Of a stretch of 64,000 nucleotides of DNA, positions 420-38,741 are shown one piece after another. Numbering within the stretch: the stretch's first letter is position 1; every line of letters begins with the position of its first letter. This stretch comes from an uncultured Spirochaetota bacterium (GTDB lineage Bacteria > Spirochaetota > UBA4802 > UBA5550), in assembly GCA_942493035.1 (NCBI GenBank), contig OW818666.1, positions 4,129,464-4,193,463 of the forward strand, given 5' to 3'. The translations under genes were made by a program, and so were the position numbers. Under the pieces are notes generated by a model. The model did not search any database. It worked only from the letters and a program-made list of their open reading frames with translations, and was not told the origin of the DNA.

Positions 420-536
420 CAGTAATTATTCCTGAATATAATTTTAAGTACAAAAAAAATTATATATCCCCGTCGCCTTCGGCGGCGGGTATAATAGAAC
501 CTTTTTTACTACAGATAAGTTAATGAATACATACTG
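420..536 (+). mobile_element. MITE copy 1 (117 bp)
   Basis: Ends CAGTAATTATTCC...GAATACATACTG; central CGCC-TTCG-GCG hairpin; direct repeat AATTATTAT at 411-419 and 537-545. Confidence 0.88.
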
Positions 537-830
537 AATTATTATATCTCTTTAATTCCCATACATAATAGAGTCAATATAATTATATCTAATATAAGTT
601 ATAACATCTTATCAATTTAAATGTTGCAATTATTAAGAAAATTTATTATAATATATTGTAATTATTTATATAAAAATGTAAATTTGAAGAAAGTAACAGT
701 AATAATCTTGAATTTTACCGGTTTTGATATTCCATTATATATCAGTTTGTATAGAGTTCCGATTTTTTTAACTTTTATAGCTGAAAAGCCACTTAAATTG
801 ATAATATTCTAAAAAAGTGAAAGGTGCTGG

Positions 831-2183
831 ATGTACAATATACTGCTCGTTGAAGATGATAGAATCACTTCAAAATTAATTCAAAAATATATTCTTGATA
901 TCGGTTATTATCTTGCCGGTGCTGTAGCTTCCGGAGAGGAAGCCGTAGCCATTATTAATGAAAAAGAACCTGATCTTGTACTAATGGATATAAATCTTGA
1001 AGGTAAACTTGATGGTATTGAATCTGCTAAAAGTATAAACAGCACAATATCTATACCATTTGTTTATATAACATCCTCATCTGATTATTCAACAATTGAA
1101 CGGGCAAAAGAGGGTAATGCATACGGTTATATAATCAAACCATTTAATAAAAAAGACCTTCGTGCGACAATAGAGATGGCTCTGCTAAGGCATCAGATGG
1201 AGAGTAAAGTAAAGGAGAATGAAAACCGCGTATCTACAATATTAAATTCAATTATTGATGCTGTAATTGTAGTAGATGAATCGGGTGATATAGATTATAT
1301 TAATGCTGCTGCAGGGAGAATGCTCAATCTTAATAAGGATGATATTCTTGGAAAACCTATAAATGAGACTGTCAGGCTGGGTAGTGATCCAAAAGAGGGT
1401 GAGAATGTTTTTTTCCCCATGTCTATGAACTATATTGAGTTTAATAATTATCTTACAGCGGGTGATAAACGGATCCCGGTTGATTTTACATCCACCCCGC
1501 TCCGTATGGGAAATGGTAAGCTGAACGGTGCGGTACTTGTTGTCCGTGATATAACTCAGCAGGTGGAGTATGACCGGCGAATTCAGGAGAGTATGGATAC
1601 TCTTACACGCGCGATGTATGGCACTATCGAGGCGATAACAAAAACAGTTGAAACACGGGATCCCTATACTGCCGGGCATCAGAAGAAAGTTGCAGATATA
1701 GCTAAAGAGATTGCCAAGGATATGGGCTTAAGCCGGGATGTTATCGAAAGTGTTAATCTTGCGGGACAGATACATGACCTGGGTAAGATAGCAATACCAT
1801 CAGAGATACTCAATAAACCGGGAAGAATTAATGAAATTGAGTTTGCCCTTATAAAAACTCATTCCGAAATGGGATATGAGATTATGAAGAATATAGATTT
1901 TCCATGGCCCATTGCGGATATAGTTCTTCAGCACCATGAAAAAATTGACGGATCAGGTTATCCCCGCGGTCTTAAAGGGGATGAGATTTTAATTCAGGCC
2001 AGAATAATTTCTGTAGCTGATGTTCTTGAAGCGATGGCATCACACCGGCCATACAGAGCTGCTCTTGGTATAGATGCAGCTTTTGCCGAGCTTCAGAAAA
2101 ATGCAGGGACTCATTTTGAACCTGAAATTGTCGAGTCATGTATTCGGATTTTTAAAGAGAAGGGTTTTACTATTAAATTTTAA
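831..2183 (+). CDS. Response regulator REC-PAS-HD-GYP; probable c-di-GMP phosphodiesterase
   Basis: REC (LLVEDD, LMDINL, YIIKPF), PAS-like middle, HDLGK, HHEKIDGSGYPRGL, RPY. Confidence 0.92.
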   Translation: MYNILLVEDDRITSKLIQKYILDIGYYLAGAVASGEEAVAIINEKEPDLVLMDINLEGKLDGIESAKSINSTISIPFVYITSSSDYSTIERAKEGNAYGYIIKPFNKKDLRATIEMALLRHQMESKVKENENRVSTILNSIIDAVIVVDESGDIDYINAAAGRMLNLNKDDILGKPINETVRLGSDPKEGENVFFPMSMNYIEFNNYLTAGDKRIPVDFTSTPLRMGNGKLNGAVLVVRDITQQVEYDRRIQESMDTLTRAMYGTIEAITKTVETRDPYTAGHQKKVADIAKEIAKDMGLSRDVIESVNLAGQIHDLGKIAIPSEILNKPGRINEIEFALIKTHSEMGYEIMKNIDFPWPIADIVLQHHEKIDGSGYPRGLKGDEILIQARIISVADVLEAMASHRPYRAALGIDAAFAELQKNAGTHFEPEIVESCIRIFKEKGFTIKF

Positions 2184-2441
2184 AAAATTCAACTCTGGTA
2201 ATTTTTTAAAAATAGCGGAGTATGTTCTCTTCATCGGCTTGGCTTCCCTTGAAACAGAAAACTAATCTTTATCTGCATTGAAAAATATTTCCTTAAACCA
2301 TTATGGAATAATCATCTCTTTTTTTATTCATTTGAAACAATTTATTTACAAAAAAGATTTCCTTTACTCTTAATAGCTATCGGATAACTTTCGCCGTTCA
2401 GCGAATGTAATCTGTCGGTTTAATGGAGCGAACAGAGTAAA

Positions 2442-4676
2442 ATGAAAACAAGTTTTAAACGGGTAAAAATAAAAGTAAAAGGGATAGTCCAGGGCGTAGG
2501 CTTCCGTCCCGCTATGGCTAAACAGGCTCTCTTAATGAGGCTTACAGGGAAAGTCTGCAACACCAGAGATTCCGTAGAAATTGAGATTCAGGGTGATATA
2601 GAGACTGTTCAGCAGTACATCGACCTGTTTGATAGTTTTGTCCCTGAAAATGCAGTTATATCTTTTTTCTCGACAGAGGAGATTCCGTGGGTTCCAGACG
2701 GAAAGACATTCAGTATAATTGAAAGCAGAGAATCGGGGCCGACGAGATTCAGTATCCCTCCCGATATAGCAATGTGCGGCAGATGCCGTGATGAGTTTTA
2801 TGATACTCAAAACAGAAGATATCTCTATCCGTTTATAACCTGCGGCAACTGCGGCCCGCGGTACACCTACATGAAAGATATGCCATATGACAGGGCAAAG
2901 ACATCTATGTCTGCTTTCCCATTCTGTCAGGAATGTGCAGATGAATATAATAATCCTGAAGACCGGCGTTATCATATAGAGGGATTTTCATGTCATGTAT
3001 GTGGTCCTGCCGTGTCCGGTTTTGAAGAGACTATAGCTGCATTACTTGATGGTAAAGTTGCTGCTGTTAAAGGTCTTGGGGGATATAATATTGTCTGCTC
3101 TGCAGTAGATTATAATGCGGTGCAGAGACTTCGAGATAGAAAGCGCAGGCCTGGTAAACCATTTGCAATAATGTTCAGATCTTTAGAAACAGCCCGTCAG
3201 TATGTAAACATTGCTCCTGAAGAGGAGAGACTTCTGACATCAAAGGTGTCCCCCATAGTTGTAGTCAGAAAGAGGGAGCATTCGGCGATTGCGGAGAATA
3301 TTGCTCCGGATAACGGATATCTGGGGATAATGATTCCATATACTCCGCTTCACCAGCTAATTCTTGACCGGGCGGATATACCTTTGGTTATGACAAGCGC
3401 AAATATATCGGGAGATCCATTGATAATAAACGATGATAAAGCTTTATCGGAACTTGCAGATATAGCCGATGTTTTTTTAACGCATAACAGAGAGATATAT
3501 AAGAGAGCTGACGATTCTATTTCGTTTATATCCGGCGGAAAAGAGATAAGTATAAGGATGGGGAGAGGTAGAATGCCCTATCCTGTAAAACTCCCTGAAG
3601 AGAGCAGAAATAAAATCCTCGCTGTGGGAGCTGAGCTGAAGAGTAATATCTCTGTTGTATCAGATGATAATCTTGTAACCAGCAATCATATTGGAGACCT
3701 GGGTACACCGGAGACATTTTCGCACTTTCTGGAAACAATTCTTGAAATATCGGATTTTTATGATATAAAACCTGATGTGGTAATTGCTGACCTTCACCCC
3801 GATTACGAGTCAACATCCTTTGCCCGGGAATTTTCAGATAAATACAATATCCGGCTTATGCAGGTTCAACATCATTATGCACATTTTCTTTCATGTTATT
3901 TTGAAAACGGTTTAAACGGCAAAGCGGTTGGGATAATTTTTGACGGTACAGGTTATGGAACTGACGGCACCATCTGGGGCGGAGAAATTTTTACAGGAGA
4001 TCTGCATTCATTCAGCAGGGTCGGCAGACTCGCTCCTTTTCCCCTGCCCGGCGGAGAGAGAGCAATTCGTGAACCATGGCGAATCCTCTCGGGACTTCTC
4101 GATGAAGAAGATTTTTTTAACTGCTGTTCCTGGGTGGATAAAAGTGTTCTTGATAATGTACTGCAGATTTCAGCAAACAGAAATTTTTCACCCTTAACTT
4201 CAAGTGCCGGCAGACTCTTTGATGCGGCCGGGTCGCTTCTAGGATTTAATAAAAATGTTTCATATGAAGCGGAGGCTGCAATCTATATGGAGATGCTTGC
4301 GCTGAGAAGCAGCAGTGATGAATATATCTCTGTCCCGATAACAGAAGAAAACGGTTTATTTGAATTCAACTCACCGGAACTGATTAAAGAGTTATACCGG
4401 AGAAAAAAATCGGGAGATAGTTTATACGATCTTGCAAAGATTTTTCACAATTCGCTGATTGAAGGAGCGGCTAATATAGCCGCAGAGGTCTGTTATAAAA
4501 ACGGAACTGATCAGGTAGTTTTAAGCGGAGGTGTTTTTCAGAACAGGATTATGCTTGATTTGGCCGAAAAAAAGCTTGCGTCTAAAGGGTTGAAAGTTTT
4601 TATTAACAGAAATATCCCTTCAAGCGATGCGGGGATTTCAGCCGGACAGGCAATTTACGGGGTTTACAATGCATGA
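2442..4676 (+). CDS. hypF: Carbamoyltransferase HypF
   Basis: GIVQGVGFRP acylphosphatase domain, two CxxC-x18-CxxC zinc fingers, DLHPDY, QHHYAH, FDGTGYG, DAGISAGQ. Confidence 0.97.
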   Translation: MKTSFKRVKIKVKGIVQGVGFRPAMAKQALLMRLTGKVCNTRDSVEIEIQGDIETVQQYIDLFDSFVPENAVISFFSTEEIPWVPDGKTFSIIESRESGPTRFSIPPDIAMCGRCRDEFYDTQNRRYLYPFITCGNCGPRYTYMKDMPYDRAKTSMSAFPFCQECADEYNNPEDRRYHIEGFSCHVCGPAVSGFEETIAALLDGKVAAVKGLGGYNIVCSAVDYNAVQRLRDRKRRPGKPFAIMFRSLETARQYVNIAPEEERLLTSKVSPIVVVRKREHSAIAENIAPDNGYLGIMIPYTPLHQLILDRADIPLVMTSANISGDPLIINDDKALSELADIADVFLTHNREIYKRADDSISFISGGKEISIRMGRGRMPYPVKLPEESRNKILAVGAELKSNISVVSDDNLVTSNHIGDLGTPETFSHFLETILEISDFYDIKPDVVIADLHPDYESTSFAREFSDKYNIRLMQVQHHYAHFLSCYFENGLNGKAVGIIFDGTGYGTDGTIWGGEIFTGDLHSFSRVGRLAPFPLPGGERAIREPWRILSGLLDEEDFFNCCSWVDKSVLDNVLQISANRNFSPLTSSAGRLFDAAGSLLGFNKNVSYEAEAAIYMEMLALRSSSDEYISVPITEENGLFEFNSPELIKELYRRKKSGDSLYDLAKIFHNSLIEGAANIAAEVCYKNGTDQVVLSGGVFQNRIMLDLAEKKLASKGLKVFINRNIPSSDAGISAGQAIYGVYNA

Positions 4677-5013
4677 ATTGAGTCTTGCAATGAGCGTGCG
4701 GGAGATTGTTGAAGATGCCGCTAAACAGAACGGTGCAAAAAAGGTTAATGAAGTAAATATAATTGTCGGAGAGTTTAGTTCAGTATCCTCCGATGCTCTT
4801 GAGTTTGCAATGGAAGTTGCTAAAAAGGGTTCTGTTTTTGAATTCGCTAAAATTAATATAAAATCTACAAAGACAATTCTTTCATGCAGTCAGTGCAATC
4901 AGGAGACAGTTATGGAAGACTACATTTTTAAATGCGGTGCCTGCGAATCCACATCAGTAAAGATTGTATCCGGCGATAGAATGTACGTTGACTCAATTGA
5001 TATAGAAAACTAG
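4669..5013 (+). CDS. hypA: Hydrogenase nickel metallochaperone HypA
   Basis: Start corrected to ATG 4669 (MHELSLA, conserved His2), overlapping the hypF stop; CSQC and CGAC zinc motifs. Confidence 0.95.
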   Translation: MHELSLAMSVREIVEDAAKQNGAKKVNEVNIIVGEFSSVSSDALEFAMEVAKKGSVFEFAKINIKSTKTILSCSQCNQETVMEDYIFKCGACESTSVKIVSGDRMYVDSIDIEN

Positions 5014-5023
5014 GAGAATTTTA

Positions 5024-5719: not shown

Positions 5720-5730
5720 TGGGCGCGTCG

Positions 5731-9151: not shown

Positions 9152-9160
9152 TTCTATTCT

Positions 9161-9744: not shown

Positions 9745-10033
9745 TTTTTACCTCTTTAAGTTTATAGGGCTCGCCAATCTATGCCGATATAGCAGATGAG
9801 TACTAATTATTATTATAACGGTTAGTATATGTCATTTCAAAAAAATATCGTTTAATGCAGTTATTTTTTAGAGGCATAGCGCTAAGAATCCGCACATCTG
9901 AAACAATTGCGGCAGTGTAGTTTAGTTCAGGAAATATAATTTTTATTTGATTTAATGTGAATGAATTGAAATGCTTGGTAATCGGAGATTTATCTCCGTA
10001 AATTCTCTTAATCCGGCATTCATGGGGGTAATT

Positions 10034-10909
10034 ATGAAGCTTAACAATGAAGCAAAAGTCGGCTTTATCATAACATTAAGTTTCACAATTTTTATACTTA
10101 TTGTTGCTCTCCTTGCCAGGATTAACGTGTCAAGGTCGGGTTATGAGCTTGGAATTTATTTCGGTTTTTTAAATGACCTTAATGTGGGTGCTCCTGTAAA
10201 CATAGCAGGGGGTATAAAAATAGGTCAGGTTACTGCAATAAGGCAGTCCGGCGAAAAGACCGAAGTAGTAGTCTGGATCGATAATAAGTACCGTCTGATT
10301 AAAGATACAAAGTTTGCAATTTTTACAAAGGGTATAATCGGAAGTAAATATATAAATGTGTTTGTTCCTCCATCGGTAAATGTTGAGGATTTTTTGAACG
10401 ACGGAGACCGGGTATATGGAATCGATCCTCCAAGTTTTGATCAGATGATGCTGATCTTTCAGGGCTTTATGCAGGATCAGAGCGGCGGTGAGCTCCTTGC
10501 TGAAATTTTTAAAAACTCAAAACAGTTTATTGAGAACCTCAATACAATCTCCAGGGAAAACAAGGGTGATATCCGGCAGACCGTGCTCGTAACCAAGTCG
10601 AGTGTTTTTCTTTTCTCACAGCAGATGAGGCTGTTCATGGATGAGCTTAACAGATTTACAGGAAACATGGCGGGCTTATCGGAAAAGAATAAACAGGATG
10701 TTACTATAATAATAAAAAACATGTCTGAAATATCGAGCAATCTCAATACAATTATAGGACGTCTGGAACAGGGGAGAGGGAGTCTGGGTAAACTGATGAA
10801 TGATGAAGAGATATATTACAATATAAAAGATGCTTCAAAATCCGCAAAGGATCTTTTTGATAACCTCAAGCAGGATCCGTCCAAACTTTTTTTCAAGCAG
10901 AAGCAGTAA
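10034..10909 (+). CDS. MlaD/MCE family protein
   Basis: Start adjusted to 10034 (after GGGGG RBS); NEAKVG plus one TM helix, GAPVNIAGGIKIGQV, GIIGSKYI, helical C-terminus with GSLGKL. Confidence 0.85.
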   Translation: MKLNNEAKVGFIITLSFTIFILIVALLARINVSRSGYELGIYFGFLNDLNVGAPVNIAGGIKIGQVTAIRQSGEKTEVVVWIDNKYRLIKDTKFAIFTKGIIGSKYINVFVPPSVNVEDFLNDGDRVYGIDPPSFDQMMLIFQGFMQDQSGGELLAEIFKNSKQFIENLNTISRENKGDIRQTVLVTKSSVFLFSQQMRLFMDELNRFTGNMAGLSEKNKQDVTIIIKNMSEISSNLNTIIGRLEQGRGSLGKLMNDEEIYYNIKDASKSAKDLFDNLKQDPSKLFFKQKQ

Positions 10910-10910
10910 T

Positions 10911-12245
10911 ATGGCAAAGAAAACTGATTTTTACTTCTGTACTGCCTGCGGTGCGGATTTTTCCAAATGGAACGGAAGATGCAGCGCATGCGGCGAGTGG
11001 AATACCATCGTTGAAAAGACCGAGTCTTCACCCGGGCGAAGACATCGCGATGCACCGACTGCAGTACTTCTGAGTTCTGTGGATAAGGCGAAAACAGTCC
11101 GCGGGAAAACCGGTATAACTGAATTTGATCTGGTATGCGGCGGAGGGATTGTCCCCGGTTCGGTTATTCTTCTCGGCGGAGAACCGGGAATAGGGAAGTC
11201 CACTCTCTCGCTGCAGATATCCGAAAAGCTGAATGCGTTATATATATCGGGAGAGGAATCACCTGTACAGATCAGACAGCGTGGCGAACGGCTGTCTATA
11301 GATATGGGAAAGATCCATATCTCTGTAAACAATGAGGTTGATGATATTATTGAACTGGCCGAAAGTATTAAGCCGGGGTGTCTTATTATAGATTCGATAC
11401 AGACTATTTACTCTGCTGAGATTCCGGGGATAATAGGTTCAGTAAGTCAGGTTCGTGAATCGGCCTCAAGACTTGTTGAATTTGCCAAGAAGAAGGGTGT
11501 CCCTGTAATATTAATAGGTCATATCACAAAAGACGGAAATATCGCCGGTCCTAAACTTCTTGAGCATATAGTGGATACGGTTCTTTATTTCGAAGGGGAT
11601 TTTTCAAAGGATTATCGCGTACTACGTGCATTTAAAAACAGGTATGGCTCAGTCAACGAACTTGGCCTATTCCGGATGACCGAGAACGGACTGGAAGAGG
11701 TTAAAGATAAAAATAAAATCTTTCTCAATCCGTTTCTTTCTGCTGCACCGGGAAATGCCGTGTCAGCAGCGGTTGAGGGGAGCCGGACAATTCTCTTCGA
11801 AGTGCAGGCGCTTGTTACATTTTCGAGTTTTTCAAATCCAAGAAGATTATCTGATGGTTTTGATCTCAACAGGCTTATAATAATATGTGCTGTCCTGGAA
11901 AAACACGCCGGGCTGAAACTCAGTAATTTTGACGTATTCATAAATCTTTCAGGCGGATTTAATATTAACGAAACAGCCGGGGATCTTGCCGTAGCTGCGG
12001 CAATTGCATCGAGCCTTAAAGAGAAAAGAGTTGAGGATGGAGCTGGTTTTATCGGTGAAGTTTCACTCTCCGGTGATATAAGGCCTGTTTCAGGTATAGA
12101 TAAAAGGGTGCAGGAGTTCCGTTATTCAGGTTTCAAAAAGCTCTATGTCTCTCCTGCAGATCTTGTTAAAAGTCAGAAAGCCGGATTCGAGGGTGAAATT
12201 GTAGCTGTTGCATCAATAAGCGAATTGATGAGCGCTCTGTTTTAA
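10911..12245 (+). CDS. radA: DNA repair protein RadA/Sms
   Basis: Start adjusted to 10911; CxxC-x10-CxxC zinc finger, GGEPGIGKST, YISGEES, IDSIQT, KNRYG, Lon-like C-terminus. Confidence 0.97.
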   Translation: MAKKTDFYFCTACGADFSKWNGRCSACGEWNTIVEKTESSPGRRHRDAPTAVLLSSVDKAKTVRGKTGITEFDLVCGGGIVPGSVILLGGEPGIGKSTLSLQISEKLNALYISGEESPVQIRQRGERLSIDMGKIHISVNNEVDDIIELAESIKPGCLIIDSIQTIYSAEIPGIIGSVSQVRESASRLVEFAKKKGVPVILIGHITKDGNIAGPKLLEHIVDTVLYFEGDFSKDYRVLRAFKNRYGSVNELGLFRMTENGLEEVKDKNKIFLNPFLSAAPGNAVSAAVEGSRTILFEVQALVTFSSFSNPRRLSDGFDLNRLIIICAVLEKHAGLKLSNFDVFINLSGGFNINETAGDLAVAAAIASSLKEKRVEDGAGFIGEVSLSGDIRPVSGIDKRVQEFRYSGFKKLYVSPADLVKSQKAGFEGEIVAVASISELMSALF

Positions 12246-12294: not shown

Positions 12295-12380
12295 GTCGGG
12301 CCAAATGATTATTTGCCCGTACGGGATGAATATTATCTGAAAAATTTTGGTCGTTGGGGCAAATAATCATTTGCCCGCAT
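12295..12380. repeat. Inverted doublet of REP-like palindromes
   Basis: GTCGGGCCAAATGATTATTTGCCCGTAC (12295-12322) and, in the opposite orientation, GTTGGGGCAAATAATCATTTGCCCGCAT (12353-12380); 30-nt spacer. Confidence 0.75.
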
Positions 12381-12437
12381 GGATGGATATTGTTTCGAAA
12401 TTTCTTAAAAGAAAATAAGGTTAAAAAGATAAATAAA

Positions 12438-13433
12438 ATGAGATTCAGAATAAGACACTATCATAATAAGTTTTCAAGAAAATTCTACGAGAGCTACTTC
12501 GTTTTCAAAAAGAAGAGGGAGAAGGTCTGGAAGAGATTTGTTGAAAAGGGTCATGAAAAAATGACCGTTATGTTTATCCCTCACAATGAGAAGAAGATTT
12601 TCAACTTCCAGATATCTAAATTTATTATTTTTTTCTTTCTCAGCCTTTTTATATTTGTTATCATTACCTCCTCTTATGCCGTAATTAAAAACAGAAATAT
12701 TAAAAATGAGGAGAGAAAACTTCTCCTTTCATATAACGATATCCGGGCTGATCTTATCCGGTACGAACAGCTGACAAATGAAATTACAGATATAGTAAGC
12801 GATCTAAAACCGGATATTGAAGATCTCTATCAGCTTGCGGCAGGTACTGACGAGATTGGTGATCTATGGGCATACAAGGATTTCGACCATGATGTTATGG
12901 AGGAGCTCCTTAAAAATAAGAGAATTGTCCCTGATGAGATTTTTGCAATGAAAGAAGTGCAGAAGGATTTAATGAGCACAACCAGCACTATTAAAACAAT
13001 TAAGAATTTTATCGATGTGAGAAGCAAAGTTATTCAGGACATGCCGTCTATCATACCTAATCCCGGTCATATATCGTCTCTATTCGGATGGAGAAGATCA
13101 CCTTTCGGTCACGGGAGAGATTTCCATACCGGTATAGATATCGCCGCATCTGCAGGAACTGTTATCCGTACCACCGCACCTGGTGTAGTTGTCTCATCGG
13201 GATGGATGGGGGGATACGGAAAAGCAGTAAGGATTCAGCACAAATTCGGTTATGAAACTATTTACGGACATATGAGTTCCATTGCTGTGGGCAAAGGGGC
13301 TAAAGTCGGAAAGGGTGACCGCATCGGTTTTGTCGGAATGACAGGAAACGCCACAGGTAACCACAACCATTATGAAATCAGACTTGGAGATATTCCAATC
13401 AACCCGTATCCATATATGAGTCGAATGTGGTAA
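12438..13433 (+). CDS. M23 family metallopeptidase (murein hydrolase or activator)
   Basis: TM helix, coiled coil, HTGID, YGHM, HNHYE. The track start at 12354 lies inside the REP doublet, so ATG 12438 is preferred. Confidence 0.9.
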   Translation: MRFRIRHYHNKFSRKFYESYFVFKKKREKVWKRFVEKGHEKMTVMFIPHNEKKIFNFQISKFIIFFFLSLFIFVIITSSYAVIKNRNIKNEERKLLLSYNDIRADLIRYEQLTNEITDIVSDLKPDIEDLYQLAAGTDEIGDLWAYKDFDHDVMEELLKNKRIVPDEIFAMKEVQKDLMSTTSTIKTIKNFIDVRSKVIQDMPSIIPNPGHISSLFGWRRSPFGHGRDFHTGIDIAASAGTVIRTTAPGVVVSSGWMGGYGKAVRIQHKFGYETIYGHMSSIAVGKGAKVGKGDRIGFVGMTGNATGNHNHYEIRLGDIPINPYPYMSRMW

Positions 13434-13508: not shown

Positions 13509-16500
13509 ATGAATAGAATATTTTTAATCTACATCTCTTCGCTTGTCATAACCGCTGCTGGTATTTATTATGCAGGGGCGCAGGATCATTCCGGTTTTAA
13601 AGAAAAAATGATTCAATTCCTGGAAAATGCCGGGACAAAAAGTGATTCTGCTGAACCGGCAAATCCGGAAAATAATGTCTTTCTTCGATCTGATAATAAT
13701 AACAATACATTTTTTAAAAGCGGTGAATGGTCGGAATATGTTTCCAATCCTGAATCGTTTATAAATCCGGAGCAGTTTAAAAACGGAAATCTTTATTCCG
13801 ATGAGAAGATAAACATAAATGCTTCCGGTTCCGTTAATGTAAATCTCAACTACGGTAAATCATACTATACCAGCAAAAAATATATTCAGTATGATGAGGA
13901 TCTCCCGTATTCAAGAGTTATCGATTCGGGATTCTGGCCGGAGCAGAAAATTCTCCTGCACATGGACGGAACTATCGGTGATAGAATAACCGTTTTTATC
14001 GATCATGACAGCAGCCGGAAAGAAAATCAGTATATGCTCAATTACCGTGCCCTCTCTGATGATGAAGTTATCCGCGAGATAAATGCCGGAGAGATTGATA
14101 TAAAATTTAATCACTCCAGATATGCAGTTTATGACAATACTGATGCAAAAGGTCTTGGTGTCGATTTTACTCTGGCAAAGAATGATTTTACATTAAAAGC
14201 CTTCGGCAGTGTGGCACGGGGTGAAACAATGGTGGAATATTTTAAGGGTAATTCATCTCCATCCGGTATTAAAATTGCGGAATATCAGTATATAAGCGCA
14301 ACCTATTATCAGCTCGAACCTTTTATCCGCTACGACGGAGCTGCTGTAACTCCTTCAGGGAGCGGAGCTTATTCTCTTGTAACATTTACTTCAGCACCGG
14401 CTAATCCAGCGGCATATGTTCTGTCTCCCGTTAACATCTCACCGTCAGATTTTGAACTCTATGTAGACGATCAGAACCAGTATAACAACAATAACGCAAT
14501 TGTCCTCCCCCTCGACGGGGGATATTATACAAGAATGGTCAGCGGTAGTGATTATTCTATTAATTTTTCTACAGGGGTTATTCATTTATTGAAGGAGTTT
14601 CCTCAGAGTTCAAGGATATTTGCAGTATATAAACGGACAGGGGGGACTCTTGATCCATGCGCATTATCATCTGGACCCGGGATATTTTCCAACAGAATAT
14701 TTGTTTTTATAAAATACGGCTACTCCATTGATGAAGATCGAAACAAAGATCTGGTGCTGGATACCGGTGAAGATAGAAATGGCGACGGCAGAGTTAATCT
14801 TGATATCTATGAAATCAGATCGGTCTATTTTCTCGGTAACAGGCAGATTCTTTCATCAGACTTTTCCATAGATTTTTATAAAGAGAATCAGATTATGGAT
14901 AAGGAGGATATAACTAAACTCAGCAGCTATAGGCTTAATCTCCAGGAAGGTTTAATTCAATTCTCTACAAGGGAGCCCTTTAAATCAGTTCTGCCTGCAG
15001 ATAAAGCGGCCAGAATTTATACTGAAACGAAAGTTATTGATGGCTATCTCTACTCATTATATAATATGATCTCTGAGTTCAATGTTGAGGCGCGGCTGTT
15101 CAAGTTAAAGTATAGTAATGTCATTGATAAGAGTGTCCGGGTCAAGATCAATGAAGTTGAACTCTCTCCATCTTTATATAGTGTAGATTATGAATCAGGC
15201 TATATAAATTTTATAGATTCAAATAATCCTGTAATAAGTTCAGATTCAAGAATTGAAATTAAATATGAGTATCTCCCATTCGGCTCTTCAAGTGAAAACT
15301 TCATCAGCGGCGTACGTGCAGATTATGATTTAAACAAAAGCCTGAGACTCGGCGGAACCATAATGTTTTCCAAAGACGGACAGAGTGAAATTATTCCCGA
15401 TATCGGAAATGTAAGCGAGCAGACGCTGCTATTCGAAGGGGATGCGTCGCTAAGGCTTTCGCAGAAGCGTCTGGCGGATCTATATAATATTTTTGCAGAG
15501 AGAAAAAAGAGATCTATTCCGGCGGAATTCTCCGCCTATGCCGAGTATGCAAAGAGCATTAAAAATGTGAATACGTTCGGAAAAGCCCTTATTGACAACA
15601 TGGAGACCTCGGACGAAATAGTTTCAGTTTCACTGTCAGAGAAAGACTGGATTCTGTCATCTCTCCCTGCCTCATATTCGCAAAGCAGCCGGGGTCTGCT
15701 GAATTACTATTTTTACAGAAATCCCGATTCCCCCGAGACATTAAAGGGTGAAGGGTATAATTCCTACCTGATAAATTACTCAGTAAAATCAGGACCGTTT
15801 AATATTGCAATGGGGCATGTTGATTCTGATATTACAGAGCAGGCTTATCAGAAGTCTCTTGTTTTTGATTCTAATTTCTCAGCAGGTCAGAATATTGTAA
15901 GTGCTGTAACAAGAGAACTGACTGATACCTCCATAGATCTCTCGGGGATGCAGTACGTTGAAGTATGGGTTAAATATGAAGGTGGAGCTTCGGACTCGGT
16001 GGACCTCAAGCTCGACTTCGGTTCAGTAGATGAGGATTCCGATGGTGACGGAGTATTTGATACGGAAGATGCAAACAGGAACGGATACATAGACTCTGAA
16101 CCGTCAACGGGATACTCCGAGGATCGTGGATATGTTTTTAACCCGGCCGGCGGGACAGCGACAAAGATCGGTTCAGGACCGGGTCTGAGCAGTTTAACAA
16201 AGGGTGATGGTGTACTTACCAGTGAGGATCTTAACGGGAATGGTCTGCTTGATATAACTAATAATATTTATCAGGTGGACGTCGGGACTATTACTCCGGC
16301 TGGTGGAGTATGGCAGAAGCTCAGAGTTCATATCGACTGGAGTACTGTCTCATCATCGCAGATACAGGCGCTTCAGCAGACAAAAAGTATTAGACTTAAT
16401 CTTGTAAGAAATAACGGATCATCCGGCCGTGTGTCAATCGATACTCTTAAAGTCATAAGTGCAAAATGGAAAAATCCGAAGCTGAATGACATCACTCCTA

Positions 16501-26251: not shown

Positions 26252-26887
26252 TTGAAATTAATAGTCGGTTTCGGTAATCCGGGCGAAAGATTTGCAAATA
26301 ACAGACAGAATATCGGTTTTAAAGTAATCGATATTGTGGCTAATAATGAGAACATCGAAGTTCGAATTAAAAAGAAAAAATCTATAATCGGCCGCGGAAA
26401 AATACAGAAAAATGACGTTGTACTCCTCAAACCTCAGACTTTTGTGACTCTCATCGGAGAGTCTGTTTTATACATAGCTTCATTCCTGAGAATAAATGTT
26501 AAAGATATTATCTGTATTGTAGAGGATTCATCGCTTGATCTTGGTGAGTTGAGAATTGACTATCTTCAGTCAGATCTTAATCATGCAGGCGTAGATTCCA
26601 TGGCCGTAGCCCTTAAATCTGAGAAGTTTGCAAAGGTCAGGGTTGGAGTCGGAGAGTGTCCCGAGGGTACTTCGATGGAAGATTATCTTTTACAGGATTT
26701 TACGTTTGAGGAAAACCTCCTTTTAATAGATATACTCAATAAGGCGGAGCAGGCAGTCAGAATGCTTGTTACGAACAATATTGAAGATGTTCAGGAGAAA
26801 TATAATCCTGAAGGGGCTCCAAAGATCAAGAAAAGACAGGTTAAGGCTATTCATATAGATCACCGCAAATCACAAAAAAACAGTTAA
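26252..26887 (+). CDS. pth: Peptidyl-tRNA hydrolase homologue with a divergent active site
   Basis: TTG start; MKLIVGFGNPG, LLKPQTF, VRVGVG, and canonical position after rplY; catalytic residues substituted. Confidence 0.8.
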   Translation: MKLIVGFGNPGERFANNRQNIGFKVIDIVANNENIEVRIKKKKSIIGRGKIQKNDVVLLKPQTFVTLIGESVLYIASFLRINVKDIICIVEDSSLDLGELRIDYLQSDLNHAGVDSMAVALKSEKFAKVRVGVGECPEGTSMEDYLLQDFTFEENLLLIDILNKAEQAVRMLVTNNIEDVQEKYNPEGAPKIKKRQVKAIHIDHRKSQKNS

Positions 26888-27151
26888 ATTTACAATCTGA
26901 CTGTCATTTCAAGTTTCTATATTATCCAGACTACTGTTTTTGCAATTCAGTCATTATTCCACATCTGGTCTTAAACTTCATTAATTATTATATCAGCTGT
27001 AGTTCCAAAAACAGCTGATATATGCTCTCTTTTAAAAAATTATAATCAACTTAATAAAGTTAAGCGACTTACTTCTGAGATACACTATTTTAATAACATC
27101 GAATCCATTTTTTCTTGACTTTATCTATTCAGTAGATATTATAATTTTGAT

Positions 27152-27270
27152 CAGTAATTATTCCTAAATATAATTTTTAGTGTAAAAACCAAAAATTATA
27201 TATCCCCGCGCCTTCGGCGGCGGGGATAATAGAGTTTTTTAACTTTGGAAAATTTAAGGAATAAATACTG
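27152..27270 (+). mobile_element. MITE copy 2 (119 bp)
   Basis: TIR CAGTAATTATTCCT vs CAGTATTTATTCCT (13/14); direct repeat AATTTTGAT at 27143-27151 and 27271-27279. Confidence 0.9.
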
Positions 27271-27333
27271 AATTTTGATTCAATGAAAATTATTTTTCAT
27301 CATTTTTTCTCTAAATAGGATTCGGGGGTTTTT

Positions 27334-28098
27334 ATGCTTAAAAAAAGGTTTTTAGTGTTATTTATTGTTATAAATATTTTTGGTGCATTTAATGCAGGAT
27401 ATTCTCAAAGTGAAGAGAAAAAGTTCAATCAGCAGTATAATCCTGTGTCTCTTATTAAAAGATTAAGTTATGAAAATTTTAAGAATATTAAACTTCTCCG
27501 TTCGGCTATTATGAATTACGGCGGGGGCGAAGCTGAAGTACAGAAATTAATTGATCAGTATGCAGATGCGACTGCACTTTATTTTGAAGATAAAGTTGAA
27601 GAATCAGCGGCTAAGTTCAGTGAAAACGAAAAAGAGATTTTTAAAATTGCTAAAAAAATTGCTGCTGATTACAGCAAAGATTCATCACAGTTTTTAAATA
27701 AAGGGATAAAAAGAAATGTTCAGGTTTCAATACAGCAGGAAATTGAAGGGAAGACCCGTGATGCTGTAATGGATAAGTATCTTGATAATGCTAAATCAGC
27801 TAATAAACGTGCCAGTTCTATATTGGACGATTATAAATATTCCAATGAAAAAAATACAGGTTCTGCACAGCGTTTGATAACTTCAATATATTATTACAGG
27901 CTGGCTAAACAGAATCTTTTTCTCATGTATCAGGCGCACATTGAGTCTATGAAACTTGATGAAGATAAAAAGAAAGATAGAGATATGAAAGATCAGTTGT
28001 ATGACAAGATGCTAAAAGAAGATTACAAAGAGGATTACAAGAAGGATCTTCAGGATAATAAAAACAAAGTGTTTACATCTATGGAGAAAAAAATCTGA
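27334..28098 (+). CDS. Exported alpha-helical hypothetical protein
   Basis: Signal peptide, charged helical sequence, 254 aa; no recognised motif. Confidence 0.7.
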   Translation: MLKKRFLVLFIVINIFGAFNAGYSQSEEKKFNQQYNPVSLIKRLSYENFKNIKLLRSAIMNYGGGEAEVQKLIDQYADATALYFEDKVEESAAKFSENEKEIFKIAKKIAADYSKDSSQFLNKGIKRNVQVSIQQEIEGKTRDAVMDKYLDNAKSANKRASSILDDYKYSNEKNTGSAQRLITSIYYYRLAKQNLFLMYQAHIESMKLDEDKKKDRDMKDQLYDKMLKEDYKEDYKKDLQDNKNKVFTSMEKKI

Positions 28099-29626: not shown

Positions 29627-29794
29627 TATGTTATGTCATTAATTGTTCTCAAAACTGTAGAGCTTGTATCTCTGCAGCGCCTACTGCACGGTAGAGAGCA
29701 TTTTTCCCATCAGTTTATAAATACTGTTCATACATGTGTTTTTAAGAAAAGCATTTATTCAGTAAGTTACTTCTTTCAGATTATTTTTATAAAT

Positions 29795-29922
29795 CAATAT
29801 TTATTCCTTAATTTTTATAGAGTATAAAAAGATCTATTATCCCCGGCGCCGAAGGCGGCGGGGATATGTATTTTTTGTTTTTCACACTAAATTTTTATTT
29901 TTCGAATAATCAATAATTACTG
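29795..29922 (-). mobile_element. MITE copy 3 (128 bp, reverse orientation), inserted in the 3' end of the slt gene
   Basis: Reverse-complement match to copies 1, 2 and 4; direct repeat TTTATAAAT at 29786-29794 and 29923-29931. Confidence 0.88.
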
Positions 29923-32217
29923 TTTATAAATAGATTCATATTGAATTAGACATTTTTTTGTTCTGAAAATATAATCCCTTGTTTCATCAAATGGTGTGAA
30001 TTCTGCAAAATAATCAATATCTTTATTAACCGGTCTTTTTTTCCATTTGCTGACATTTCCGGCGCCGGCATTATACGCTGCTGCCATATATTCAATCTGA
30101 CTATCAAAATATTTATTCAGCCATGCTATATAATTTGATCCGAACTTTATAGATGTGCATGGATCAAATAGGTCGTACTTTGAAGCACTGATTTTTTTCG
30201 AAATATCTTTAGCGGTATCCGGCATAAGCTGCATAAGACCAGACGCACCAACTGGTGATACTGCCCTGTGGTTGAAGTTTGATTCCACTTTTATCATGGC
30301 AAGTATGAGTTCAGGCTTAACTGAATTTTTTTTAGTTGCATCATCTACGCAATCTGCAAAAGCATATGGGTAGAGTGCCGCGGCAAAGTTTTGAGGTATA
30401 AGAGAAAGGTTTTCCTTCAGTTCAAGGAGGTTCAAAAGTTTGAAACTATAAAGAGTTGAAAAATTATAATATCTGTATTTCATTGAATAAACTGTTAATG
30501 CAAGAGCCAGATCTATCTGTGCTTCTTTATCATTTTCCGGAAAAAGTTTTATTTCTCGGTTTATTGCTTCTATATCCCCTGCATAAAAGTATAATTCCAT
30601 GTGTTTCACAAGCAGCTTATATCTGGAAGTGTAATGCGGATTATTCATTAAATCAGCCAGTTTTTTATAAGGGGATGTAACGGCTGTATCCAGTTGTTCT
30701 AATCTTTCCGTATAGGAAGTGGTATATCCGTTTTTTATAAAGAGCAGTGCGTGATAAAGTTGTAACTCATTACTATTGTTTTTTTTAGCGGCTTGTTGAA
30801 ATTTAGTTAACAGTTCTGATGTTTCCAGTTTATCGGCGTATAATTTAAGAAGAGATAAAGTGTGATATGAGTCCGGATTATTTACAGCAAGCTCTTCAAG
30901 AATTTTAATGTAGTTTAGTGAATTATTGTCTGCAGCTGATATTTTATTCATCCAGAATCTGCAGTATGATGTATAACTGTTATCGGGGTATCTGTTTATC
31001 CCTCTGGTGAAGTAATCAACAGCCTTCTGTTTGTTAGAGTAGTTCATATAGAAACGGCCCATTAACCATATAAAACGTCCACACTGAATTTCTTCGGGAA
31101 ACTTTTCTATATACATCTCCATGTACCTGATAAACTCAGGATTTTTTTTACTTTCATAAAAAAATGAAAGTCTTGTCAGAACTTTTTCAGATATTTTTAT
31201 ATCTGATGATGAGATAAGTCTGGTGTAGACTTTAACTGCCTTAATCTTTTTTCCCATTTCCCATAGTATATTCGCGTGTTCCAGTAAAAGCTCATCATAA
31301 CCGGATTTACCTTCTCTCTCTTTGAGAAATTCTGCCGCTTCCGGAGAATTTTTGATAGTGTGCATTTTCAGTATTATCATTTGACCATCAGATGATTCCG
31401 TTTCCGGAATCGCTGCTTCTGCAAGAGTAAGAGCTCTGTTGTAATCCTTTGCGTCGTATAGAGCTTTTGCGAATAATATGTTCTTGTCTGCTGAGTCGAG
31501 TTTTATCTTTTTCTCAGTTGTCAGGTAAACTAATCGTTTAGAGGCAACACTGTTCTGCCATACCCCGCCTGCGGATTTTATAACATTTAAATATGATTCA
31601 ACAGCGTTTTGTAAATCTCCTGCTGATTCATATATTGCTCCGAGACGTAAATGAATTAACGAAAGGGATTCGCTGTCTTTGTATGATGGGATTATCAGCT
31701 GCAGAGCGTCTATGGCGTTTTTAAAACGGTTAAGTTTTAAAAGAGATCTTGTTCGAAGGAGAACGGAATCCCTGTAGAGTGCTGAATCATCTCTTTCAAT
31801 GAGATCTGAAAATTTTAAGACATATTCATGTTCCCCATAATCATAAAAGATAGATGCAATTTTATAAATTGAATCTCTATAAAAAATACTCTTCTCATTT
31901 GGTGATCCGGTAAAACGATAAATCGGATCAGGGAAAAGCCTTATATTAAAATTAAAATTTTTATCAAAGCAGCTGTTGGTATAGTAAAGCAGGGCTTTCT
32001 TTAATTCTTTTTTGTTACGGTATGCACCTGCAAGAATATAATTGTTCTGACAGTTCCCGATCCTTTTGTCGAATTTGTGAATTATAGCTTCAGGCTTGCT
32101 GTAAAAAGCTTTTTCAGATAATGATGCTGATAATTCGTGGTTTATTAACGGTTCTGCAGATGAGAGTGAGATGATAGAAAAAGTAAAAAATAATACTGCT
32201 GTGATTTTTTCAATCAT
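29917..32217 (-). CDS. Soluble lytic transglycosylase with TPR/helical N-terminus
   Basis: KVESNF (catalytic Glu), GASGLMQLMP, AAYNAG, ETRDY. Confidence 0.92.
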   Translation of the reverse strand: MIEKITAVLFFTFSIISLSSAEPLINHELSASLSEKAFYSKPEAIIHKFDKRIGNCQNNYILAGAYRNKKELKKALLYYTNSCFDKNFNFNIRLFPDPIYRFTGSPNEKSIFYRDSIYKIASIFYDYGEHEYVLKFSDLIERDDSALYRDSVLLRTRSLLKLNRFKNAIDALQLIIPSYKDSESLSLIHLRLGAIYESAGDLQNAVESYLNVIKSAGGVWQNSVASKRLVYLTTEKKIKLDSADKNILFAKALYDAKDYNRALTLAEAAIPETESSDGQMIILKMHTIKNSPEAAEFLKEREGKSGYDELLLEHANILWEMGKKIKAVKVYTRLISSSDIKISEKVLTRLSFFYESKKNPEFIRYMEMYIEKFPEEIQCGRFIWLMGRFYMNYSNKQKAVDYFTRGINRYPDNSYTSYCRFWMNKISAADNNSLNYIKILEELAVNNPDSYHTLSLLKLYADKLETSELLTKFQQAAKKNNSNELQLYHALLFIKNGYTTSYTERLEQLDTAVTSPYKKLADLMNNPHYTSRYKLLVKHMELYFYAGDIEAINREIKLFPENDKEAQIDLALALTVYSMKYRYYNFSTLYSFKLLNLLELKENLSLIPQNFAAALYPYAFADCVDDATKKNSVKPELILAMIKVESNFNHRAVSPVGASGLMQLMPDTAKDISKKISASKYDLFDPCTSIKFGSNYIAWLNKYFDSQIEYMAAAYNAGAGNVSKWKKRPVNKDIDYFAEFTPFDETRDYIFRTKKCLIQYESIYKQ

Positions 32218-35825: not shown

Positions 35826-36979
35826 GCATTACATACAGCTTCGTTATAAACTTCCTTTAATGGAACATTATATTTTATTGCTGCATTTTTACAATCTTCA
35901 TATTCGGGTGATAGAGTAACAGGATTCCCATTAAATTTGTGGATCTTCACTTTTATTATTCCGAATTTTGTTTCAATACCCTGCAGGGTTCTTTCCAGTA
36001 TTTTCCTTTTTACTATATTTATTCTAACACCGGATGTTGTTGTTTCTCTGAAAACAATCTCTGTAATACGGTCTGACTTTTCTTTTGGTGAAAGAATTTT
36101 CAGTATGTGACCGGGGCGGTTTTTTTTCATTACAGCCGGGATAACAGAAATATCCAGAGCCCCATTCATTAAAAGAAGTTCAAACAGATAAGAGTAGATT
36201 TCAGGATTCATATCGTCAATTGAAGCTTCCAGTTCGAACACTTCGTCATCAGTTTTATGAATATTTTCATCGTCGCCGATGAAAAGACGGAGTACGTTTG
36301 GAATATCAAGATTTTTTGTACCTGCACCATATCCGATTGATTCTGTTTTCAAATCCGGAAGTGAAGTGAAGTCCCGGCAGTAGTGTTTAATAATTGCGGC
36401 GCCGGTTGGAGTGGTTAATTCGGCTTTAATACCATTTGAGTAGAGAGGTATACCCTTGAGTATCTCGGCAGTTGCAGGAGCAGGAACCGGGAGAGTGCCG
36501 TGTGCGGTCTCTATAAATCCGCTGCCTGTGTTGAGAGGAGATGAAACGGCTTTTTCTATTCCGGCTTTATGAAAACATATTGCAGCACCGCAGACGTCAA
36601 TAATTGAATCTATCCCGCCTATCTCATGGAAGTGTATAGATTCGATATCCGTGTTGTGAATCAATGCTTCAGCTTTTCCGATTATATTAAAAATTGATAC
36701 GGCATTGTCTTTTACTGATGAATGGAGTGTGCTCGACTCAATTATTTTTACAATGGAGCTCAATGACCGGTGTGACTGATCGGATATTACTTCGACATCA
36801 AATTTTGAAGCTGAAATATTATTTTTCAGACATTTTTTATATGATAATGTGTATCCGTCTATATTGAGTTTTTTTAATTCTTTTTCAAGATAAGAGAAAT
36901 CAACGCCTGTATCTAAAAATGCGCCGATTATCATATCGCCACTTACTCCTGCAAAGCAGTCAAAATAGGCTATTCTCAT
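35810..36979 (-). CDS. larC: Nickel insertase for the nickel-pincer cofactor (fused C1-C2)
   Basis: YFDCFAGVSGDM, IHFHEIG..DSI.D, HGTLPVPAPAT, ELTTPTGAA, GYGAG, IDDMNPE, MKKNRPG, ETTTSGVR, PEYED. Confidence 0.95.
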   Translation of the reverse strand: MRIAYFDCFAGVSGDMIIGAFLDTGVDFSYLEKELKKLNIDGYTLSYKKCLKNNISASKFDVEVISDQSHRSLSSIVKIIESSTLHSSVKDNAVSIFNIIGKAEALIHNTDIESIHFHEIGGIDSIIDVCGAAICFHKAGIEKAVSSPLNTGSGFIETAHGTLPVPAPATAEILKGIPLYSNGIKAELTTPTGAAIIKHYCRDFTSLPDLKTESIGYGAGTKNLDIPNVLRLFIGDDENIHKTDDEVFELEASIDDMNPEIYSYLFELLLMNGALDISVIPAVMKKNRPGHILKILSPKEKSDRITEIVFRETTTSGVRINIVKRKILERTLQGIETKFGIIKVKIHKFNGNPVTLSPEYEDCKNAAIKYNVPLKEVYNEAVCNAQNFF

Positions 36980-36984
36980 AAAAT

Positions 36985-37731
36985 TTATCCCCGGTTAATT
37001 ATTGCTGCAAGATATCCTGCACCGAATCCGTTATCGATATTTACTGTTGAAACGCCAGGTACACAGCTATTTATCATCGTAAGGAGAGCAGCTGCACCTC
37101 CAAAGTTTGCACCGTATCCTACACTCGTAGGGACCGCAATTACCGGTCTGCTGACCAGACCCGCCGCCAGGGAGGGGAGAGCTCCCTCCATTCCTGCTAC
37201 TGCCACAATTACGTTTGCACTCTGCAGCAGGTCAATTCTTGCAAGGATACGGTGAACACCGGCTATTCCGACATCGAATAATCTGTCAACAGGTGAGCCC
37301 ATTACCTCTGCCGTGATGGCAGCTTCTTCGGCGACGGGTATATCTGTGGTTCCTCCGGTTATTACGAGGATTCTTTTTTCAGTTACAGGTTCAGGGATTT
37401 TGCCGATGATAATTACCCGTCCGTGAGTGTTGTATGCTATTTCAGAAAAATACGGTTTAAGGAAGGTATATAGTTCTATCGATGCTCTTGTTGCCAGAAT
37501 TACTCTGTTATTCATTGAGAGTCTTTCCGCAATCTCTTTTACCTGCTGATCTGTTTTACCTTCGGCATATATAACTTCAGGCTGTCCGGTTCTTATGGGC
37601 CTATGGTGATCAATGCATGCAAAATCTATGTCTTCATATGGAAGTGATTTAAGCATGGAGAAGGCTTCATCGTTTGTAATCTCGCCTTTCTGTATTTTTT
37701 CAATTAGCGACTTTATTTTTTCCTCATTCAC
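36985..37731 (-). CDS. larB: Nickel-pincer cofactor carboxylase/hydrolase
   Basis: DHHR..RTG.PEVIY.EGKT, GTTD.PVAEEA, DVGIAG.HR, AGMEGALPS, PTSVGYG, VNIDNGFGA. Confidence 0.96.
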   Translation of the reverse strand: MNEEKIKSLIEKIQKGEITNDEAFSMLKSLPYEDIDFACIDHHRPIRTGQPEVIYAEGKTDQQVKEIAERLSMNNRVILATRASIELYTFLKPYFSEIAYNTHGRVIIIGKIPEPVTEKRILVITGGTTDIPVAEEAAITAEVMGSPVDRLFDVGIAGVHRILARIDLLQSANVIVAVAGMEGALPSLAAGLVSRPVIAVPTSVGYGANFGGAAALLTMINSCVPGVSTVNIDNGFGAGYLAAIINRG

Positions 37732-38558
37732 TGCTTTTCCTCTATGTTTATGTTCATGCTCCCTGTCCGGTATCCCTGAAGATCGAGAGTTATATACTTA
37801 AAGCCTGATTCTTTAAGATCTGCAAATACTTTTTTCCGCATTGCCGAAGATGCAATCTCTTCAATCATGTCCTCTGCAATTTCAATGCGTAGAATCTCAC
37901 CATGAAGTCTGGCGCGAATTTTTTTAAATCCGTATGAAGTTAAAATTTTTTCTGCAATCACGGCTTTATTCACAAGCTCAACTGTTAACGGTGTCCCGTA
38001 TGGAATTCTTGTCGCCAGACAGGGATATGATTCTTTTTCTGAAGTCGGGAGTTCCAGGTATGAGGATAATTCATATATACTTTTTTTATCAAAACCGGCA
38101 ATCTTTAAAGGGCTTAGAACTCCCAGTTCATCTATTGCTTTCATGCCGGGTCTGTAATCATTCATATCTCCGGAATGAGATCCTTCCAGAATAGTATTAA
38201 TTCCTTCCGCTGATGCGGCAGAGATGATATTATTTAAAATAATGGTTTTGCAGTGATAACATCTTTCAGGGTTGTTATCAGTTATTTTTTTAAAAGAAAA
38301 TATATCTATATCGATAATCCGGTGATCAATGTTGAGTGAAGATATAACAGATACTGCTGATCTGATTTCATCTTCGGTAATCATCGCGGTATTTACGGTA
38401 TAAGCAATAAGTTTTAAATCTGGATTTAATGATGCAGCAAAGAGCAGCAGTGTACTGTCAACACCTCCGGAGTATGCAATAGCCGCAGATTCGATAGTTG
38501 AAAGATAATGTTTTAGATTAAAAAATTTCTTTTCAGTTTCAGATGAGAGTTTTATCAC
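37728..38558 (-). CDS. larE: ATP-dependent sulfur transferase for the nickel-pincer cofactor
   Basis: GTG start; AYSGGVDS PP-loop, RCYHCK, DYRPG, PCLATRIPYG, GYRTGSMN. Confidence 0.95.
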   Translation of the reverse strand: MIKLSSETEKKFFNLKHYLSTIESAAIAYSGGVDSTLLLFAASLNPDLKLIAYTVNTAMITEDEIRSAVSVISSLNIDHRIIDIDIFSFKKITDNNPERCYHCKTIILNNIISAASAEGINTILEGSHSGDMNDYRPGMKAIDELGVLSPLKIAGFDKKSIYELSSYLELPTSEKESYPCLATRIPYGTPLTVELVNKAVIAEKILTSYGFKKIRARLHGEILRIEIAEDMIEEIASSAMRKKVFADLKESGFKYITLDLQGYRTGSMNINIEEKQ

Positions 38559-38619
38559 TTAACCTTCCAGTTATAAATTTATTTGGAGTCAATTAATCTT
38601 TAAAATATTTTTTTGAGAT

Positions 38620-38741
38620 CAGTAATTATTCCTGAATATATTTTTTAGTGTAAAAAACAAAAAATTATATATCCCTGTAATCTTCGGCAGCGCGGATAAT
38701 AGAACTTCTTTTACTATAGAAAAGTTAAGAAATAAATACTG
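38620..38741 (+). mobile_element. MITE copy 4 (122 bp), central hairpin partly decayed
   Basis: CAGTAATTATTCCT...AGAAATAAATACTG; flanks TTTTGAGAT (38611-38619) and TTTTGAAAT (38742-38750), 8/9 identical. Confidence 0.85.

Follow-up and report, generated by a model that had tools for sequence, protein, structure and literature searches.

In this study, we show that a 64,000-nucleotide stretch of the chromosome of an uncultured Spirochaetota bacterium (contig OW818666.1 of assembly GCA_942493035.1, positions 4,129,464 to 4,193,463; the whole of this stretch is referred to as the window) carries four copies of a short repeat which is very probably a transposable element of the miniature inverted-repeat kind (MITE) derived by internal deletion from an insertion sequence (IS) of the IS4 family. 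The DNA in which the copies lie is chromosome of an uncultured Leptospirales-type spirochaete of about 37% G+C. The window contains housekeeping genes such as pth, the gene for ribosomal protein L25/Ctc, PRPP synthetase, response regulators and tRNA-Gln, and its nearest public relatives are uncultured Leptospirales/Spirochaetota metagenome-assembled genomes (MAGs), one gene being 81.6% identical to that of HGW-Spirochaetae-5. Two metagenome contigs, L001 and L002, carry flanking genes that are 85–89% identical to those of the window. All four copies are intergenic. Copy 1 lies upstream of a response-regulator/PAS/HD-GYP gene (831-2183), copy 2 between pth (26252-26887) and gene 27334-28098, copy 3 beside an SLT/TPR lytic-transglycosylase gene discussed below, and copy 4 between the divergent genes 37728-38558(-) and 38864-39781(+).

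The four copies had been placed at the positions given in Table 1 by an earlier sequence-only reading, and all of them were confirmed: a profile built from full-length copies finds exactly these four matches in the window (E = 1e-26 to 1e-31). They are 117–128 bp long and, when aligned over this length, about 82% identical to one another. The core pattern matches the window three times, against 0.00 matches expected in shuffles, and misses copy 2 by a 1-nt deletion only. Every copy starts with CAGTAATTATT and finishes with ...AATA(A/C)ATA(C/T)TG; terminal inverted repeats (TIRs) of the CAGTAWTTATTCCT type are present at both ends of all four with 0–2 mismatches, and an imperfect inverted similarity of the ends reaches about 38 nt inward. 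The left end reads CAGTAATTATTGAT in copy 3, which has a small internal duplication there (CAGTAATTATTGATTATTCG), and CAGTAATTATTCCT in the other three copies; the right ends, as reverse complements, read CAGTATGTATTCAT (copy 1), CAGTATTTATTCCT (copy 2), CAATATTTATTCCT (copy 3) and CAGTATTTATTTCT (copy 4). Direct repeats of 9 bp, different in sequence at each site, bracket all four copies; three of these target-site duplications (TSDs) are perfect and that of copy 4 matches at 8/9 positions. The 9-mer that had been read for the reversed copy, TTTATAAAT, is correct on the + strand. The elements are non-coding, as 117–128 bp leaves no room for any transposase. Their GC-rich core is intact in copies 1–3 and decayed in copy 4 (CCCTGTAATCTTCGGCAGCGCGG), which, with its decayed stem and its 8/9 TSD, is the oldest-looking copy of the window.

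Table 1. Positions of the four MITE copies and of their parts within the window
Feature	Position	Strand	Basis or remark
Copy 1, left TSD AATTATTAT	411..419		read directly; identical to 537-545
MITE copy 1, 117 bp	420..536	+	profile E = 2e-28
Copy 1, TIRs	left 420-433, right 523-536	+	right TIR with 2 mismatches
Copy 1, hairpin of the GC core: UUC loop on 9 pairs, of which one is G-U	469..489	+	ViennaRNA
Copy 1, right TSD AATTATTAT	537..545		sequence read
Copy 2, left TSD AATTTTGAT	27143..27151		same 9-mer once in L001 and L002
MITE copy 2, 119 bp, both TIRs perfect	27152..27270	+	profile E = 5.5e-31
Copy 2, hairpin of the GC core: UUC loop on 9 pairs, one G bulged out	27204..27225	+	fold
Copy 2, right TSD AATTTTGAT	27271..27279		sequence read
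Copy 3, TSD TTTATAAAT next to the right end of the element	29786..29794		sequence read
MITE copy 3, 128 bp, reversed	29795..29922	-	alignment
Copy 3, hairpin of the GC core: UUC loop (element strand) on 10 positions, of which one is a C-C mismatch	29841..29863	-	fold
Copy 3, TSD TTTATAAAT next to the left end of the element	29923..29931		sequence read
Copy 4, left TSD TTTTGAGAT	38611..38619		8/9 match to right TSD
MITE copy 4, 122 bp, decayed hairpin at 38673-38695	38620..38741	+	alignment, fold
Copy 4, right TSD TTTTGAAAT	38742..38750		sequence read

The family extends well beyond the window. A scan for the exact core, which covered one genome per species, returned 41 loci, all of them from six uncultured Leptospirales/Spirochaetota MAG species and at least 23 from one MAG, in keeping with the earlier expectation of many copies genome-wide. 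A scan of metagenome contigs by end sequence, which listed at least 120 loci and whose counts are lower bounds, added at least about 30 further copy-bearing contigs, more diverged copies included. Among 67 full-length copies from the related MAGs and the metagenomes, the TSDs match at 9/9 positions in 21, at 8/9 in 19 and at 7/9 in 11, that is, at 7/9 or better in 51/67. The combination of TIRs and fixed 9-bp TSDs, which the sequence-only reading took for the footprint of a DDE transposase, is therefore seen across dozens of further copies as well. The preference for AT-rich targets that it had proposed is also borne out, since the TSDs contain only about 13% G+C; A stands at position 1 in 31/40 and T at position 9 in 30/40. 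In the reconstructed target sites there is, in addition, an A at 6 nt before the 9-mer on the element's left side in 31/40, with no mirror T opposite. BLASTN of the MITE against a plasmid collection gave one chance-level match only, and a TIR scan of viral contigs gave 117 single background-level matches, with no MITE and no IS among them.

An empty site was found for copy 2. Both L001 and L002 carry the interval from pth to the downstream gene without the element and with a single AATTTTGAT (...TATTATAATTTTGATTCAATGAAAA... / ...TTGACTTTATCTCTTCAGTAGGTATTATAATTTTGATTCAATGAAAAG...), which is the exact sequence predicted by removing copy 2 together with one duplication. The absence of copy 2 from these contigs indicates that it was inserted after their split from the lineage of the window. 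Precise deletion is an unlikely origin of the empty sites because excision by DDE enzymes leaves a footprint. For copies 1, 3 and 4, exact-protein look-ups of three adjoining window genes gave no records from which empty sites could be read. The window has no copy upstream of gene 2442-4676, whereas two copies precede the orthologous gene in locus L022; when the window is aligned with L022, the intergenic DNA proves too diverged for this site to be defined.

It might be thought that such repeats are not transposons at all, being instead palindromic repeats of the repetitive extragenic palindromic (REP) or terminator-like kind, or a family of small RNA genes, spread by recombination or duplication. 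In favor of this, the repeat has a GC-rich palindrome and is present in many copies in AT-rich intergenic DNA. However, the 9-bp TSDs that differ from site to site, the precise empty site in the relatives and the identity of the TIRs with those of an IS, described below, all speak against it, and in an Rfam search of the whole window tRNA-Gln was the sole match, with none for the MITE copies. The empty site and the TSD statistics refute this explanation, and we regard it as scarcely credible.

The sequence-only reading had suggested that a transposase gene flanked by the same TIR be looked for, and one was found. Among the metagenome matches listed, contig L246 contains an IS of 1241 bp with the ends CAGTAATTATTCCTAAAC... 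and ...AAGTTAAGGAATTAATACTG, the left of which equals the 17-nt end of the MITE, CAGTAATTATTCCTAAA, and with a single open reading frame (ORF) of 370 aa that is unbroken by any frameshift. Full copies on longer contigs measure 1232–1241 bp, and an IS with MITE-type ends is present in L246, L281-L289, L291 and L292. The 370-aa product of L246 matches the Pfam domain DDE_Tnp_1 (PF01609; E = 1.4e-28, 100.4 bits against a cut-off of 23) and the NCBIfam model transpos_IS4_1 (NF033592; 180.9 bits, the cut-off being 115). When 14 relatives, 44–75% identical to the L246 protein, are aligned, D116, D179 and E287 are invariant, as is the motif Y280-x2-R283-x3-E287-x6-K294. This agrees with the definition of the IS4 family by Y-(2)-R-(3)-E-(6)-K with the catalytic E, an unbroken single ORF and direct repeats of about 8–13 bp, the direct repeats of IS701, ISH3 and IS1634 being 4–6 bp (De Palmenaer et al., 2008; PMC2266710). 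Within the family, the IS appears to resemble most the IS4Sa subgroup by its size, its ends and the length of its duplication: 1232–1241 bp, 5'-CA ends and 9-bp repeats, compared with 1150–1750 bp, CA------T and 8–10 bp for IS4Sa (PMC2266710, Table 1). It differs from IS4Sa in having A at position 9 of its ends, where IS4Sa has a mostly conserved T. Among annotated IS4 transposases of the plasmid collection, even the nearest are only about 30% identical. A literature search for the end sequences yielded no relevant paper, and no name was found for either the IS or the MITE.

About 65 close relatives of the transposase were found, mostly on contigs of 1.2–1.7 kb; short contigs are the usual outcome for a multi-copy IS in metagenome assembly. 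Perfect 9-bp TSDs flank four of the IS insertions, namely those in L285 (ATAAAAATT), L286 (AAAAAGAAT), L291 (TTTTTTAAA) and L292 (GACCAGTTC). Moreover, the IS and the MITE occur together on the 227-kb contig JASEKO010000038.1 (L281/L282), where the IS at 9886-11126 and a MITE at 15798-15917 lie 4.7 kb apart and share the TIR variant CAGTAATAATTCCT. At the end of the contig with the 1241-bp IS (L246:1-290), the AT-rich DNA gives way to a GC-rich stretch of about 170 nt that contains several short hairpins and is possibly another repeat family.

Comparison of the two elements indicates how the one arose from the other. The left 45–48 nt of the MITE align with the left end of the IS, including the 14–17-nt TIR CAGTAATTATTCCTAAA, and the right 46 nt or so align with its right end (...ATAGAG..TTACT..AAGTTAAGGAATWAATACTG), in which the transposase gene has its final codons and its stop. 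Between these arms the MITE has a GC-rich stem-loop of about 25–30 nt, with no counterpart in the IS or elsewhere in the window. All copies share the same junction of arms and hairpin, which implies descent from one deletion derivative that spread, and not independent decay of several IS copies. Of the enzymes that had been proposed to move the element, of IS4, IS256 or ISAs1 type, the first is thus supported by Pfam, NCBIfam and the YREK motif, and nothing of the other two types was found. Mobilization by another DDE family that makes 8–10-bp duplications, such as IS256 or ISAs1, would account for the length of the TSDs, but this length alone is common to those families and to IS4. The sole transposase-bearing element with MITE ends among the matches listed belongs to the IS4 family, neither an IS256 nor an ISAs1 model is among the NCBIfam matches of its ORF, and the similarity of the MITE arms to it extends 45–48 nt inward at both ends. 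A partner of this other kind therefore seems very improbable.

Taken together, the ends, the duplications, the empty site, an IS with matching ends and duplication length, and the occurrence of IS and MITE on one contig are the basis on which we explain the element as a MITE that is an internal-deletion derivative of the 1232–1241-bp IS4-family IS (probability about 0.9). Several observations weigh against this explanation. Transposition itself is deduced from footprints; about a quarter of the MITE copies have TSDs matching at no more than 6/9 positions; the IS copies in L246, L281 and L284 stand without a clean TSD; and a search by TIR pairs and multi-copy ORFs of 41 MAG loci and the window found no autonomous IS, either in these 64 kb or in the loci of six related MAGs, which amount to about 300 kb. 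The poorly matching TSDs fit with age or rearrangement, the cause in each copy not being given. The missing autonomous IS is weak evidence because MAG assemblies usually lose IS copies.

The same missing IS would be expected if the copies of the window were fossils, the family having been mobile in an ancestor of a genome that now has no working transposase. The identity of only about 82% among the four copies would also fit, as would the decayed hairpin and 8/9 TSD of copy 4 and the TIR mismatches in copies 1, 3 and 4. However, copy 2, with its two perfect TIRs and its perfect TSD, is absent from L001 and L002 and so was inserted after the split. In addition, close relatives of the transposase that retain the catalytic residues occur widely in samples of the same kinds, and, as noted, IS copies are typically lost from MAGs. 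That the window holds fossils only is a possibility we take seriously, though we lean against it.

For a MITE derived from this IS, the course of transposition may be proposed by analogy with the DDE transposases of IS10, IS50 and IS231. A full-length IS would supply the transposase in trans, and the enzyme would bind both ends of the MITE and excise it by cut-and-paste. The element would then be inserted at 9-bp staggered cuts in AT-rich DNA, where repair of the gaps would produce the 9-bp duplication. The central hairpin would have been kept by selection in those lineages that produced new copies.

Pairs of this kind have precedents. IS231 of the Bacillus cereus group is an IS4-family IS whose non-autonomous derivatives, MIC231, are moved in trans. 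The MITE described here is likewise non-autonomous, has the ends of an IS4-family IS and would depend on its transposase, although MIC231 cassettes are larger and carry passenger genes, whereas the MITE is non-coding and no longer than 117–128 bp. IS231 has CAT ends and duplications of 10–12 bp (PMC2266710). IS10 and IS50, the sequences of Tn10 and Tn5, share with the partner IS the 9-bp target duplication and the DDE/YREK chemistry; their ends begin with CT or CW and they form a separate subgroup (PMC2266710). By analogy, the partner IS may use the hairpin-intermediate pathway of IS10 and IS50. Correia elements of Neisseria, RUP of Streptococcus pneumoniae and ERIC/IRU of enterobacteria are hairpin-forming MITEs of about 100–150 bp with TIRs and many intergenic copies, and sometimes affect neighboring genes. 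These elements have very short duplications and belong with other IS families, in contrast to the 9-bp TSD and IS4-family ends found here, and they fold mainly from their TIRs, whereas the present MITE has a separate central GC stem-loop. The density of MITEs in the window agrees with the abundance reported in a survey of conserved prokaryotic MITEs, in which the Leptospirales, with about 154 MITEs per genome, mostly intergenic, ranked first among the orders (PMC11602168), the hosts here being uncultured MAG lineages.

It seems, then, that this is a textbook MITE/IS pair whose sole feature beyond the routine is a conserved central hairpin that is independent of the IS. The pair is now documented in an uncultured part of the Leptospirales about which little is known. 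This should help to annotate such repeats correctly in MAGs, rather than as small RNAs or terminators, and the insertion polymorphisms can serve as markers that separate closely related populations. The hairpin, being absent from the parent IS, provides a tractable case for the question of which internal sequences a MITE needs.

The sequence-only reading had described the core as an unusually stable C(UUCG)G tetraloop, which did not hold. In the ViennaRNA fold, CGCC is paired with GGCG and a UUC loop of 3 nt is left between them; the C(UUCG)G register is incompatible with the stem because the next pair would set C opposite C, and the loop is not conserved between subfamilies. Intact copies form a helix of 13 pairs (TATCCCCGCCGCC / GGCGGCGGGGATA). 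Its loop is TTC, TAC, GAA, GTA, TGC, TCC, AGA or CAT according to subfamily, those with other loops including copies found by their ends alone, and the helix is kept by compensatory pair changes. Across 62 distinct cores, 89.5% of the cells are paired, compared with 37–62% when the partner strand is slid by 1–3 columns. Compensatory double changes occur at 9/13 pairs and the observed covariation was reached by 0/500 shuffles, counts that were made on paralogous copies related by descent and so overstate the number of independent events, a further point on the side opposed to our explanation. In copies ascertained by their ends, conservation is 0.77–0.79 in the stem, 0.74–0.87 in the TIRs and 0.67–0.72 in the arms. 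The structure of the hairpin, rather than the sequence of its loop, has been maintained.

One way to account for this conservation, which would add to the MITE explanation without replacing it, is that the MITE acquired the hairpin and that selection keeps it as a functional module, neither filler nor a remnant of the IS. At the DNA level it might act as a cruciform or hinge that lets the ends of the element meet in one transposase complex, given that 120 bp is shorter than the persistence length of DNA. At the RNA level it might be a terminator, insulator or stabilizer of adjacent transcripts, that is, a hairpin used by the host at many promoter-proximal sites. The absence of the hairpin from the IS would suit such a role, as would a stem as conserved as the TIRs in copies ascertained by TIR only and the compensatory changes in 9/13 pairs of a helix with variable loops. 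One intact copy, in L004, also scores as terminator-like when its antisense strand is read, since TAATTTTTTT comes after a stem of 13 bp; its subfamily (left end CAGTAATT) includes window copies 1, 2 and 4. However, none of the four window copies, nor the copy in L040, passes a simple terminator scan, and on the sense strand the T run begins 7–10 nt past the stem. No orientation bias was found in tandem gene contexts, with 15 copies co-oriented and 9 anti-oriented (not significant). Placement over the intergenic classes follows intergenic length: the raw counts, 28 copies between divergent genes and 5 between convergent genes, had suggested an excess between divergent genes that disappeared after weighting (p = 0.31). 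Moreover, copy 4 has lost its hairpin with no visible consequence, and conservation can stem from descent from a few master copies. We consider a selected module rather unlikely; if there were one, the family could no longer be described simply as the passive product of a deletion.

Knowledge of the pair should also help to explain local effects on genes, as where copy 2 lies behind a promoter-like site and where copy 3 replaces the last 8 codons of a cell-wall hydrolase gene. Directly before copy 2 is a promoter-like TTGACT-N16-TATTAT (27115-27142), the -10 region of which runs into the duplicated target. If gene 27334-28098 is transcribed from this site, its transcripts would have the whole of copy 2 as their leader. 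In the SLT/TPR lytic-transglycosylase gene, 29917-32217(-), the stop codon is a TAA at 29917-29919, within the left TIR of copy 3. From the reconstructed empty site we infer that copy 3 was inserted 24 nt ahead of the original stop and clipped the last 8 codons, such that a protein once ending in ...SIYKNNLKEVTY would now end in ...SIYKQ. The reconstructed pre-insertion protein would be 7 residues longer (...KNNLKEVTY instead of ...KQ). An outward-facing promoter-like match, TTTACA-N18-AATAAT, recurs in the left arm of the MITE (window:27157-27186, 38625-38654 and 29881-29910; L004:7373-7402), and the left end of the IS has the same arrangement. Promoter-like matches are similarly frequent in shuffles of such AT-rich DNA, and an outward promoter in the left arm is a lead only.

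Some of the further copies have features of their own. Six copies belonging to several subfamilies lie within 8 kb in L024 (CAZBFP010000004.1, 136001-144000), a density far above the average. In L040, from a distant relative (49–67% protein identity), a copy at 3525-3645 stands upstream of the gene orthologous to 37728-38558(-) of the window. This copy differs from window copy 4 in its TSD (ATATATTAC), its opposite orientation and its subfamily, which indicates an independent insertion beside the same gene. In HGW-Spirochaetae-5, some MITE copies are interrupted by other small GC-rich elements. One MITE contains a 127-bp palindromic insert flanked by the 10-bp direct repeat AAAGTTAAGG (L016:757-1017), another an 88-bp insert (L009:4310-4509) and a third a hairpin insert of about 50 bp (L020, around 3437-3555); these inserts point to a second, nested family of small repeats.

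Elsewhere in the window, a Pfam search at E <= 0.001 gave no match for the 1882-aa ORF at 13509-19157 (+). A 25-nt inverted repeat at 12299-12376, with arms that are 88% complementary and 28 nt apart, lies just upstream of ORF 12354-13433 and overlaps its start, and a palindrome of about 70 nt, G-rich in one part and C-rich in the other, is found at 52897-52968.

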